From Anaerolineales bacterium (GTDB lineage Bacteria > Chloroflexota > Anaerolineae > Anaerolineales > E44-bin32): a stretch of DNA of 62,250 bases. Each line of letters begins with the position of its first letter. The first letter of the stretch is position 1. Position numbers and translations under genes: made by a program. A model generated the notes under the pieces. The model ran no database searches. It was not told the origin of the DNA and worked only from the letters and a program-made list of their open reading frames with translations. The stretch spans positions 1 through 62,250 of the forward strand of contig SOIH01000087.1 of assembly GCA_004376895.1 (NCBI GenBank), written 5' to 3'. Positions 12,644-17,381 of this stretch are shown here, in pieces.

Positions 12644-13681
12644 TTATTTCCCGAGACGTTCCTTGAAGGCTGCTGTGAGTGCAGGGACCACATCAAACAG
12701 GTCTCCGACAACACCAAAACGCGCTAGCTTGAAGATCGGCGCTTCGGGGTCCTTATTGACGGCAACGATCGTTTTGGATGTTCGCATCCCGGCAAGGTGT
12801 TGAATGGCGCCAGAAATCCCATTAGCGATGTACAGATCGGGTGAGACGACTTTCCCGGTTTGCCCTACTTGATTAGCATAAGGGATATAGCCCGCATCAA
12901 CCGCTGCACGACTCGCCCCCAGAGCTGCGTTGAGAACGCTGGCCAGATCACCTACGAGCCCAAAACCCTGTTGAGCACGCCAGACTTCCTGTTCCTTTTC
13001 ATCAGTAATCTCGTCTGGGGGTGTCAAGCTGGGATTGTTTGAAACCCCGCGCCCCCCGGAGACAATAACTGCCGCATCCGTAAGACTCACTCCCCCATCC
13101 GCATCTGTGTAACCAAGAACCTCAGTGAGAACATCCCCGACCTCAAACTCGAGGCTTGTGACTTCCCCGCTGCGGCTTGCGTCCTGTTCTGGTTTCGGGA
13201 ATGCTCGGCTTCGCGTTGTGAGAATCTGCGGTTTGCGTTCTTTGTTAACCACTTTGGAGAGCAGCTTTCCAGCGTAAATCGGGCGAGTGGCGAGCACCAA
13301 TCCGCCATCGACTTCGATCTCGATCACATCTGGCGAAACCCCTGTCTCGAGGTCCACTGCGGTCATTGCCGCTAGCTCACGCGTCCGTCCCGAGGTGGGT
13401 AGGAGAAGCACATCCGCCTCTGCAGCTGCTTTTGAGAGCACATCTGCAAAGGGTTCCGGACGGAAATCCGCTAGCGCGGGGTTTTCAGCAACGACTGCGT
13501 CGTCTGCACCATACTCGATCGCCTGCTTGGCCAGTGACTGAACATCCTGGCCAACGATGACCGCGGTGACTCCCGTACCGAGGGAGCCGGCGATTTTTCG
13601 GGCTGCCCCAATTGCTTCCCAGGAGGCAGGTAAAGCCTCGCCTTTAAAGTGATCTACATAAACGAGAACTTTATTAGTCAT
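12644..13681 (-). CDS. etfA: Electron transfer flavoprotein alpha subunit
   Basis: VSGGRG, GASRAAVDAGY, QVGQTGK, GISGAIQHLAGM and AVNKDPEAPIF. Confidence 0.95.
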   Translation of the reverse strand: MTNKVLVYVDHFKGEALPASWEAIGAARKIAGSLGTGVTAVIVGQDVQSLAKQAIEYGADDAVVAENPALADFRPEPFADVLSKAAAEADVLLLPTSGRTRELAAMTAVDLETGVSPDVIEIEVDGGLVLATRPIYAGKLLSKVVNKERKPQILTTRSRAFPKPEQDASRSGEVTSLEFEVGDVLTEVLGYTDADGGVSLTDAAVIVSGGRGVSNNPSLTPPDEITDEKEQEVWRAQQGFGLVGDLASVLNAALGASRAAVDAGYIPYANQVGQTGKVVSPDLYIANGISGAIQHLAGMRTSKTIVAVNKDPEAPIFKLARFGVVGDLFDVVPALTAAFKERLGK

Positions 13682-14463
13682 CAGACCACCTTCTCTTCTA
13701 TTAGGCGATCAACTAACTTCACAGCGATCTCCTCAGGGGTTTCCCCCTCTACGAACTCACATTCAGTCTCGACTTTCGGTGGAGCCCAAACCTCAGGCCA
13801 GGTGACCGCCGACTCCAAATCCCCTTCGAGACCCAACTCTGCAGCGGACCAGATCGGAATTTCCGCTTTTGATGCTTTACGAATCCCCATGAAGGATGGA
13901 TATCGGGGTTCGTTGATCTCCTTTACGACGGAGATCACGGCGGGGAATGAAGCCGCGACTTGCTGCCGGCTTTCATCCAACATCCGCTCAACTTCCAGCC
14001 GCTTGCTTTCAGGATCCAGGGAATTTATCACCGCAACGAGCGATAACGCCGGCCAGCCCAATCGACGTGCGACCTGCGAACCTGTTATGCCCGTTTCGGT
14101 ATCTACCGAGGATCTGCCGAAGAAGACGAGGTCCACCTCGCCGACTTTCTCAATTGCTGCTGCAAGAATTTTGGAGACCTGCAGCGAATCGAGGCCGGCA
14201 AATGAAGGATCGCTCACGAGGATCGCGTTCTCACATCCCATCGCCAACGATAGTTTAAGAGCTTCCTTGGCATCTTCAGGGCCAAGGCTGATCGCCGTAA
14301 CTTCACCACCATGCGCCTCCTTCAAGCGCAGAGCCTCTTCGACGGCAAATTCATCCCAGGGATTCAACACCAAGGGCGCATCCCCCCAGGAGATTTTCCC
14401 GTCTTCAACGGTGACCGTTGCAGCTGTATCGGGAGTTTGTTTTACACAGACAACGATATTCAA
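13681..14463 (-). CDS. etfB: Electron transfer flavoprotein beta subunit
   Basis: IVVCVKQTPD, NPWDEFAVEEA and INEPRYPS. TTG start at 14463 preceded by AGGAGG. Confidence 0.93.
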   Translation of the reverse strand: MNIVVCVKQTPDTAATVTVEDGKISWGDAPLVLNPWDEFAVEEALRLKEAHGGEVTAISLGPEDAKEALKLSLAMGCENAILVSDPSFAGLDSLQVSKILAAAIEKVGEVDLVFFGRSSVDTETGITGSQVARRLGWPALSLVAVINSLDPESKRLEVERMLDESRQQVAASFPAVISVVKEINEPRYPSFMGIRKASKAEIPIWSAAELGLEGDLESAVTWPEVWAPPKVETECEFVEGETPEEIAVKLVDRLIEEKVV

Positions 14464-14527: not shown

Positions 14528-15736
14528 CTATGACTGCCACGCTTGCGAGTCATACGCCGGAAGCTCACATCGTACTGCTTTATCTTTACGGTACCCCAGC
14601 GCATAATCCGCTTGGATTAAAGACTGGATTTCACTGCTCCCCTCATAAATCATAGCCCCGCGCGCATTGCGCATGAATCGCTCCACATCGTATTCATCAC
14701 TGAATCCATAAGCCCCATGGATCTGAATGGCTTCAGATGCGGCATGAAAGGATGCATCTGTTGCGAATTGTTTTGCGATGGAGGTCTCAAAGGTATTGCG
14801 CTTCCCCTCGTTCTTCATCCAACCGGCTTTCAGATAGAGTAAACGCGCTATTTCGTAGTCACGCGCCATGCGTGCGATCTTCTCCTGGATGAGTTGATGG
14901 TGAGCGATCGGTTTCCCAAAGGATTCTCGCTCTTTCGCGTACGCCACGCTGGCTTCAAGTGAGGCACGAATTAACCCTGTCGCGCCTGCGGCGACCGTAT
15001 ACCGGCCATGGTCGAAAGCGTTCATCGTAACCTTGAAACCCTCACCCTCTTCCCCAATTCGATTCCCAAGCGGCACGCGCACATCCTGGAATAAAATCCA
15101 TCCTGTAGACCCGGCACGCACGCCTAGCTTCCCATGGATATCCCCGCGTGAAATTCCAGGTCGATCCATCTCAACAATAAATGTAGTAAGCCCCTGACTG
15201 AGCTTCGCCACATCGGAATTGGTCCTAACAGCTACAACTGCAAAATCCGCTTTGGTTGCGAGTGAGATCCACATCTTTTCGCCGTTAAGGATGTACTCAT
15301 CTCCGTCCCGCTTGCCCGTCATCAGTATATTCGCAAAATCCGAACCTGCGCCGGGCTCTGAGAATGCCCCTCAGCCAATCTTCTCCCCACGTGCCAAGGG
15401 GACAAGGTACTTCTCTTTTTGTTCCTCTGTTCCCCACTGGAAGAGAGTCATGCTTGCTAAACCATTGTGAACGGACATCACCACCCGCAAAGTGGTATCA
15501 ATCACTTCAAGTTCTTCGCTTGCCAAACCCAATGAGATGTAATCCATCCCTTGCCCGCCATAACGCCCCGGGATGCAAATGCCGAGGATCCCCAACTCCC
15601 CCATCTTGGGCAGGACATGAGGGGCCATCTCTTGTTCCCGATCGGCTTCTTTGATTGTGGGCGCGACCTCCTTACGGGCAAAATCGCGAACCATTTTCTG
15701 AACCACCTCATGTTCCGTTGTGAGACGAAAATCCAT
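14528..15736 (-). CDS. Acyl-CoA dehydrogenase with a single in-frame TGA at codon 122 (candidate selenocysteine; otherwise pseudogene or sequencing error)
   Basis: ORFs 15371..15736 and 14528..15322 are in the same frame (1209 nt = 403 codons). Read-through gives GEKIG*GAFSEPGAGSDFAN, restoring the FAD-binding motif. The C-terminal IYEGSSEIQ is intact. Confidence 0.85.
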
Positions 15737-15962: not shown

Positions 15963-17381
15963 ATGCTTGAAAAACTCCGCCGACACTGGCAAACACTGAC
16001 AATCACGATCCTTCTTCTCCTTGCGTTATCGCCGTCACCGATAGCGTTACCCTTTCTCCATCCCCTGCAAACGGCACAGGCATCCCTTAAGACAGGGTCC
16101 CAGGAGATCGCCATCGGGCAACTCGAAGATGCTATAGAGTTTGAGAGAGCACTTGCGGGATTGCACTTGGAAGTCGCCGAGTTGGCTTTCGATGTTGATG
16201 ATATGGATACAGCCAGCGCTCATTTAGACGCGCTAGATATTCAAAACTTGCCGAGCCACGAAGCCTATTGCCTCCGTCAGCGGTTAAGCATCCGCGTTGG
16301 AGAGTTCGCTGGATTAGACAATGCCTGGCAAAGTCTGATTATAAATTGCCCGGAATCAATCTCAGAGATCGAGCAGCTTGCACGAGAACGGCTTGCTTCA
16401 AACGATCTCGACGAGGCACTTCCAATCTTTGAGGCCCTGGCCAAAACGACATCGCTTAACGCTGAGACCGAGGAGGCTTACGCATATGCGAAAGCGGCTT
16501 TGGCACCTGTGGATTCGCTACCGCTCCTTCATACGCTCGCCCGGAGAGCAGATCAGACACCTCCACTTGCAATCGATCTCATTCTTGCGATCGAGAATTC
16601 TGCCGGCGGACCATCTCCCACTCACTCTCTGGCCCAGGTAGGGCTAACCTTCGCCCGTCATGGCCGATGGAAATTGGCGATACCCTCTCTTGAAAGGGTG
16701 CTGGAAATGGACCCCGATTTCCATGAGGCGCGTGCCTATTTGGGTTTATCAAAAGACCAAACAGGGCAGAACGGGTTGGATGATCTGCTAACCGCTACCG
16801 ACGCACTGCCTGACCAAGCCCTAGCGCATGTCTTTCTGGCCTTGCATTGGCTAAGAGCAGGTGAGGAAGAACAGGCGAGGGAAGCTTTGACCGTTGCCGC
16901 TCAACTCGATCCGCTCAACCCTGCGATTGCTGCACAATTAGGTGAGGTATATACAGGCCTTGGAGATCTCGCGACTGCATCCGCTGCCTACCGCCAGGCA
17001 ACTGCCCTCGATCAAAAGAATCCTGCCTTCTGGCTCTTGCTTGCGAGATTCTCCAATCAATATGAAGTAGATATCCGTTCTCTTGCGCTTCCTGCAGCTC
17101 GAAATGCAGTTGCATTAAGTACGAGGGAAGCGGCCCCTCTTGCCGAACTTGCCTTTACGCATTTTCTCTTGGGCAACAACATTCTTGCAGAACGCCTCCT
17201 CTGGCGGGCCGTTGCGTTGGATCCCTATAATGCACAAACGCAGTATTATCTTGGTTTGTTTTTCTACGCCCAAGGGGATCCAGGCGGAGCATGGGCTGCC
17301 ATGCAGCTGGCCTCATCTCTGAACGCACCTCAACGTTATCAAGCGCTCGCAAAACGCTGGCTTGAAGGGGCTGCTCGCTGA
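15963..17381 (+). CDS. Tetratricopeptide-repeat protein with N-terminal membrane segment
   Basis: Repeated 34-aa-like units ending in LDP.N / MDPD and an N-terminal hydrophobic stretch. Confidence 0.8.
   Translation: MLEKLRRHWQTLTITILLLLALSPSPIALPFLHPLQTAQASLKTGSQEIAIGQLEDAIEFERALAGLHLEVAELAFDVDDMDTASAHLDALDIQNLPSHEAYCLRQRLSIRVGEFAGLDNAWQSLIINCPESISEIEQLARERLASNDLDEALPIFEALAKTTSLNAETEEAYAYAKAALAPVDSLPLLHTLARRADQTPPLAIDLILAIENSAGGPSPTHSLAQVGLTFARHGRWKLAIPSLERVLEMDPDFHEARAYLGLSKDQTGQNGLDDLLTATDALPDQALAHVFLALHWLRAGEEEQAREALTVAAQLDPLNPAIAAQLGEVYTGLGDLATASAAYRQATALDQKNPAFWLLLARFSNQYEVDIRSLALPAARNAVALSTREAAPLAELAFTHFLLGNNILAERLLWRAVALDPYNAQTQYYLGLFFYAQGDPGGAWAAMQLASSLNAPQRYQALAKRWLEGAAR

Follow-up and report, generated by a model that had tools for sequence, protein, structure and literature searches.

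Does a stop codon that interrupts an otherwise intact gene mark the decay of that gene, or is it read by the ribosome, perhaps as selenocysteine (Sec)? The question is raised by an acyl-CoA dehydrogenase (ACAD) gene of the short-chain/butyryl-CoA dehydrogenase type at 14528..15736 (-) of contig SOIH01000087.1, from an Anaerolineales metagenome-assembled genome (MAG; assembly GCA_004376895.1). The window, by which we mean the whole stretch of DNA that was analysed, is 62,250 nucleotides long. Codon 122 of the gene is TGA (15371..15373, minus strand), and a preliminary description made from the sequence alone had proposed that this ACAD may contain Sec. We consider it most probable, with a probability of roughly 0.6, that the TGA is a young nonsense allele shared among strains and represents an early step in the loss of a dispensable gene. 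A single T-to-A change would have converted TGT (Cys122) to TGA in the butyryl/short-chain-type ACAD of one Anaerolineales species lineage. Translation would then truly end at this UGA for most ribosomes, and the ACAD would be lost or made only in traces. The downstream genes etfB and etfA, each with a ribosome-binding site of its own, would keep serving other dehydrogenases.

Read through the TGA, the frame comprises 402 codons and contains no second stop before its own TAG at 14528-14530. The minus strand around codon 122 reads ...GAG AAG ATT GGC TGA GGG GCA TTC TCA GAG CCC..., giving the peptide context ...ARGEKIG*GAFSEPGAGSD..., and sequence, translation and Pfam place codon 122 at the first residue of the middle domain. 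Three Pfam domains were recovered from the read-through protein: PF02771 Acyl-CoA_dh_N at residues 6-118 (5.2e-36), PF02770 Acyl-CoA_dh_M at 122-219 (4e-23) and PF00441 Acyl-CoA_dh_1 at 231-376 (1e-46). The protein aligned end to end with solved butyryl-, short- and medium-chain ACADs that act with EtfAB (4l1f, 5ol2 chain C, 1ukw and 1jqi; E 3.8e-89 to 3.3e-85), the best relative being 4l1f (3.8e-89), followed by 1ukw and 5ol2. Like these enzymes it keeps the S/T-E-P-x-x-G-S-D segment, its FSEPGAGSD aligning with LTEPSAGTD / LSEPGNGSD, and its IYEGSSEIQ aligns with the YEG motif of 4l1f, 1ukw and 5ol2, the Glu of which we take to be the ACAD catalytic base. The gene is thus an ACAD by descent, but its frame is not uninterrupted: under translation table 11 it is broken by the TGA at codon 122, ahead of the middle and C-terminal domains.

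Table 11 yields one ORF of 121 aa (15371..15736) and another of 264 aa (14528..15322), the latter starting at the ATG of codon 139 (15320..15322, minus strand), which is the first start codon past the TGA in the translation. The preliminary description had taken the two fragments for a single frame interrupted only by the TGA at 15371-15373, with the remainder intact and with etfB-etfA adjacent. Sequence and translation confirmed the single frame, the three domains, the YEG motif and the SEPGAGSD segment were all present, and Pfam identified etfB and then etfA directly downstream. It had also pointed out that a split gene would leave FSEPGAGSD untranslated. The ORF restarted at codon 139 does lack GAFSEPGAGSDFANIL (codons 123-138) and hence the SEPGAGSD segment; for this reason we regard a split gene whose two polypeptides assemble as unlikely.

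The TGA is genuine and not an assembly or sequencing slip, because other assemblies, and contigs from three more studies, contain the same break. Exact protein look-up returned N-terminal fragments ending ...GEKIG (P0002, P0003, P0006 and P0008, on 2+1+8+1 contigs) and 264-aa C-terminal fragments (P0011, P0012, P0015, P0017 and P0018, on 2+1+1+8+1 contigs) from JGI/IMG, NCBI, ENA and Logan assemblies. These fragments differ from the window by V11M, M37I, L179P, N239T, S354P and R389Q (full-length numbering; R389Q is R251Q of the 264-aa fragment), and the TGA is common to at least four N-fragment and at least five C-fragment haplotypes. The window stretch, or part of it, was present in 20 public runs from 12 studies, comprising marine sediment, cold seep, subsurface and seawater metagenomes.

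Four of the runs (X1 to X4), each from another study and with X1 as a possible source of the window, were compared at the TGA site at the level of assembled Logan contigs. At codon 122 the contigs of X1 and X3 had TGA only, with no TGT contig in either run; over 711 bases, a 971-base contig of X3 had a single letter unlike the window. X4 yielded a TGA contig with zero differences, plus one from a sister species that has TGT and shows 10 differences over 178 bases. At 15371 the depth of X2 was split, 21.8 of 34.1 units having TGT and about 12 of 34 agreeing with TGA. Position 15397 separates the window from all five close full-length sisters, and only 2.72 of 38.9 depth units of X2 were non-window there. 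Because this sister marker is nearly absent while most of the depth reads TGT, X2 also contains TGT in surroundings that are locally like the window, in a very close relative or strain co-occurring with the TGA form. A TGT form within the same species was also sought by look-up of the full-length proteins of four sisters, each of which was returned as a cluster of one.

We compared codon 122 across species, drawing on 40 relatives. No stop was found in any of 30 orthologs (62-96% identity), in which the codon was TGT or TGC (Cys) in 27, GCG (Ala) in one and ATG (Met) in two. The seven nearest orthologs, six full-length and one partial, all have TGT, which points to a single T-to-A change as the origin of the TGA. 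Among 97 other genomes of the family, none of 55 orthologs (threshold E<=1e-170; a set that may partly overlap the 30) carried a stop. A degenerate DNA pattern, TGA followed by the motif [GF][GA][FL][ST]-E-P-G-x-G-S-D, matched once in the window as a control and gave no match in the genome contigs of 185,579 species, with one genome per species. Metagenome contigs gave one match, on a 1144-base contig (L048, 283-318 (-)) carrying a FadE-type ACAD fragment with TGA at the same motif position plus an in-frame TAG 12 codons upstream. Both codons of that fragment are third-position changes, of a Cys and a Tyr codon respectively, as in a broken gene or a poor contig. The TGA is confined to one species-level Anaerolineales lineage from marine sediments and cold seeps. 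The preliminary description had looked to a TGA in other orthologs as support for a selenoprotein; at the species level there was none, the doubly broken FadE-type fragment being the one match elsewhere.

Fragments of other ACADs also end or start near this site. Two N-fragments from distant lineages, P0174 (121 aa, 69% identity, on a 583-nt contig) and P0103 (122 aa, 74%), end at the last residue of the window fragment. Since N-fragment ends are spread over 117-126 (15 fragments among the matches listed, 120 of 396 at E<=1e-20), a contig end may be as likely as a stop codon in these two cases. From a TGT-bearing sister lineage, P0004 (144 aa, JGI contig) runs through Cys122 and shifts frame after ...SEPGAG, and P0013 (263 aa, JGI contig, same lineage) is a C-fragment that starts at Met139 as in the window. 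If the two are assumed to lie on a common contig, they may represent another independent disruption near the same site, or a sequencing error.

The residue aligned to codon 122 is Ala in 4l1f, 1ukw and 5ol2, the three closest solved ACADs, whereas the window frame is cut by TGA there. Because Ala occupies the position in these structures, and Ala or Met in 3 of the 30 orthologs, the residue at codon 122 is not catalytic and no redox role is expected of it. This agrees with the preliminary description, which had stated both that the position is often Cys in ACADs, as it is in 27 of the 30 orthologs, and that it is not the catalytic base.

The gene itself is dispensable in the genus. In a species of the same genus (G020) the ortholog is a remnant, located at about 13232-13708 of G020:C330 (L146 4233-4709). 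Residues 1-117 are joined to about 358-402 through an in-frame deletion of ~240 codons (junction ...LARG|AMIYEG...), and codon 77 is TAA. The deletion begins 4-5 codons ahead of the site at which the window has its TGA. This orthologous gene, like that of the window, is disrupted beside intact neighbours in the same context, with the TPR gene and mtaB upstream and etfB (95.8% identity) and etfA (90.7%) downstream. The G020 copy differs in being beyond repair, with both a deletion and a TAA, whereas the window has a single TGA in an otherwise intact frame. Because the remnant sits beside intact etfBA, loss of the ACAD with retention of etfBA has occurred independently within the genus, and a tolerated nonsense allele is therefore the simplest reading of the window. 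Two other ACAD paralogs lie on C293 and C61 of the window's own genome (G000). Entries of one TGA for ACAD paralogs were natural stop codons in all three cases checked. No ortholog at E<=1e-170 was found in 4 of 27 genomes of the genus and 42 of 97 of the family, all of them incomplete MAGs; three genomes (G004, G005 and G014) lacked both the ACAD and etfB and are uninformative on loss of the ACAD alone.

Several observations weigh against a nonsense allele. The first is how rare such lesions are in this MAG. We compared the closest sister genome, G024 (787,038 bases), with G000: among 533 ORFs of at least 150 aa, 277 had a match at 80% identity or more and 250 were covered end to end. In these ortholog pairs 19 stops at ORF ends were start or stop shifts and five stops were mid-gene, and the ACAD was the only convincing mid-gene stop among the 250 full-length pairs. 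Of the other four, two fall in 165-aa ORFs (80-85% identity) and one in an ORF of low complexity, apparently non-coding; the last is a TAA at codon 50 of an ORF called at 845 aa, and may lie upstream of the true start. Furthermore, only 3 of 150 single-base nonsense paths in the ACAD fall on a Cys codon. This coincidence is the strongest point in favor of Sec, but it is weakened because the case was selected for exactly that feature in a very large scan.

Signs of decay past the TGA were also lacking. Downstream of it, private changes on the terminal branch of the window were 11:5 synonymous to non-synonymous, compared with 45:25 pooled for five sisters (Fisher p = 1.0). For the whole gene the branch had 12:7 plus the stop, compared with 76:30 pooled for the five full-length sisters (Fisher p = 0.59), and pairwise dN/dS was 0.06-0.09 in all ACAD pairs. 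The ACADs of TGA strains differed from the window at 2/385 residues (30088-base contig) and 5/385 residues (18143-base contig), and intact neighbors on the same two contigs differed comparably (TPR protein 2/472 and 4/472; MtaB 4/429 and 7/429). Relaxed constraint was not detectable on the terminal branch or within the TGA clade, at the low power that such close strains afford, and no second lesion was seen in any TGA haplotype. Finally, an imperfect 43-nt hairpin at 15314..15356 (-), which starts 14 nt after the UGA, has a folding energy of -15.8 kcal/mol, matching the true Sec insertion sequence (SECIS) hairpins of G000 (-9.8 to -19.3), and the 63-nt segment of the ACAD ranked among the best 11% of 1500 random G000 coding segments by fold energy.

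The selection results are limited by the closeness of the strains. X3 had no synonymous difference from the window over ~790 coding bases; at such closeness, slightly deleterious variants or assembly noise may account for most amino-acid differences, whatever the gene, and dN/dS is inflated between very close strains. The TGA is nonetheless older than at least one substitution, T239N, which arose inside the TGA clade, because T239N separates TGA-bearing strains. The comparison of dN/dS on the two sides of the TGA that the preliminary description had called for was thus carried out with private changes: it revealed no relaxation past the TGA, and its power among very close strains was low. These tests do not separate a young pseudogene from a decoded UGA.

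A nascent selenoprotein is the alternative that survives best, although we consider it unlikely. SelB and tRNA-Sec would here read the UGA as Sec by way of the pre-existing hairpin at 15314-15356, acting as a weak non-canonical SECIS, and the enzyme would be functional. The machinery is complete. G000 (87.5% complete, 6.1% contamination) has SelA (390 bits), SelB (370 bits), two SelD genes, one of which itself carries an in-frame TGA, and a tRNA-Sec (72.9 bits, anticodon UCA), so that all the components which the preliminary description had wanted checked were found; given the contamination, they only presumably come from one organism. The second SelD match, which has no TGA (G000:C147:10565-11488 (+)), lies inside an 820-aa open frame, far longer than SelD, which suggests a fusion protein. 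The in-frame UGA of the ACAD stands where homologs have Cys, as in bacterial selenoprotein genes, with a hairpin of similar energy 14 nt beyond it. The Cys coincidence, the number of haplotypes that share the TGA, the T239N substitution that arose among them, and the lack of excess amino-acid change or of a second lesion are also consistent with Sec.

A further comparison is with the genes in which this genome does use Sec. Peptide context identified five in G000: SelD (G000:C130:12851, (-)), two FlpD/MvhD-like genes (G000:C62:21063, (+), and G000:C286:14133, (-)), a thioredoxin-like UxxC gene with ...GUPPC... (G000:C214:3740, (-)) and FdhA (G000:C18:11287, (+)). In all but FdhA the UGA is followed 21-33 nt downstream by a hairpin with a perfect 7-8 bp stem and a G-first triloop (GUU, GGA, GUU and GUC). 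The FdhA hairpin has a 6-bp stem, the loop CGUGA and an imperfect lower stem, showing that SelB accepts an imperfect hairpin with a 5-nt loop. On folding, the ACAD sequence downstream of the UGA contained neither a perfect 7-8 bp stem with a G-first triloop nor an element of the FdhA type. Its own hairpin is imperfect, with a 5-bp apical stem (GUUCG/CGAAU) that includes one G-U and two A-U pairs, and with a 7-nt apical loop, GAUUUUG (15334-15340), that starts 30 nt after the UGA. Loose bacterial SECIS criteria are spacing, loop size and a G in the loop, and SelB recognises G-U in the SECIS loop. The ACAD hairpin resembles true SECIS elements in energy, in spacing and in having G first in the loop, but its short stem and its 7-nt loop without GU are unlike those of four of the five true cases.

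The hairpin is also older than the TGA. The TGT sister L023 folds into nearly the same structure, and the hairpin therefore predates the TGA and comes with the coding sequence. The other seven of eight TGT sisters gave different minimum-energy structures. The TGT sister G024 has another base than the window at two positions of the 75 nt folded from codon 122 onward, besides the codon itself and the last base of the stretch. An 86-nt fold around the UGA was no more stable than its shuffles (z -0.61). The SECIS evidence is ambiguous: the ACAD has acquired no element dedicated to that role, and a weak non-canonical SECIS is possible. By inspection, the 11-mer GGCGCAGGUUC at 15342..15352 (-) recurs letter for letter in the SelD SECIS hairpin on C130, where it makes up the 5' arm and the loop. 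The ACAD has no 3' arm matching GGCGCAGGUUC, the two copies lie in different reading frames, and the sharing may be coincidence.

Rfam gave no SECIS family match at the ACAD locus, nor at four true selenoprotein loci used as controls, which makes that search uninformative. A strict scan of G000 (stem of at least 7 bp plus a G[GU]N triloop) matched 14 of 7989 eligible TGA codons compared with 8 of 9400 TAA and TAG codons, and 4 of the 14 TGA matches were clear selenoprotein genes by peptide context. Two looser scans, one for ORF pairs split by one stop and the other for hairpins with at least 6 bp of stem downstream of a stop, were too noisy to use.

Further differences from established selenoproteins count against Sec. 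The true selenoproteins of G000 have Sec in known redox or catalytic motifs, whereas the ACAD UGA falls at a non-catalytic site, and it is kept only among strains of one species, not across independent lineages. The gene is a pseudogene in G020, and the Cys coincidence is in part a selection effect. Literature searches gave no report of a Sec-containing ACAD; lists of predicted selenoprotein families are often held in supplements, where a prior mention is possible. The premises of the Sec proposal in the preliminary description hold, but with no TGA in any other species, a non-catalytic site, an atypical hairpin shared with a TGT sister and a disrupted ortholog in the genus, the proposal itself finds no support in these tests.

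Less likely again is a leaky stop, at which a near-cognate tRNA (Trp or Cys) would read the UGA at a low rate without SelB, and a little full-length enzyme would keep the frame constrained. UGA is the leakiest stop in many bacteria. A low level of read-through would fit the intact frame and its lack of detectable relaxation, and position 122 tolerates Ala and Met in orthologs. Against this, the tRNA-Sec is the only tRNA with a UCA anticodon among the 31 tRNAs found in this 87.5%-complete MAG, and no second suppressor tRNA was present among them. Release factor RF2 (prfB) is present, and TGA is the commonest stop, ending 447 of 1137 long ORFs. An enzyme level reduced at least 20-fold would itself be near loss of function. 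The same use of TGA as a stop, which extends to etfB, together with prfB excludes a genome-wide code change in which TGA is sense, as the preliminary description had already concluded.

It is very improbable that the cells really have TGT and that the TGA arose as an error of assembly or sequencing or as a chimeric strain consensus: TGT does occur in the same samples, as in X2, where its background is locally window-like, but several pipelines arrived independently at the TGA form, on 12-13 contigs that differ in haplotype, it recurs in contigs of runs from three studies besides the possible source, and X1 and X3 have no TGT contig at the site, which disposes of the sequencing error that the preliminary description had allowed for.

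If the TGA is a young nonsense allele, as we think most probable, the event is ordinary gene loss, yet it carries a caution: even where a genome uses Sec, finding TGA in frame at a Cys codon is insufficient to call a selenoprotein. If Sec were in fact inserted, this would be the first Sec-containing ACAD, and the selenoproteome would gain a family of flavoenzymes. The gene would show a selenoprotein as it emerges, with Cys exchanged for Sec almost neutrally at a non-catalytic site and the exchange fixed in one species before a dedicated SECIS existed. A selenoprotein could then arise by a single base change where a suitable hairpin happens to sit in the coding sequence, which bears on the origin of recoding.

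The genes that flank the ACAD are intact. On the same strand, etfB (13681..14463 (-), 260 aa) has a TTG start after AAGGAGG and the stop TGA; it matched the Pfam family ETF, and an exact 260-aa protein is on record. It is followed by etfA (12644..13681 (-), 345 aa, stop TAA), which matched ETF and ETF_alpha. The TPR protein is encoded on the opposite strand (window 15963-17381 (+)), and its residue 435 is Y, D or G in otherwise near-identical strains, marking a hypervariable site.

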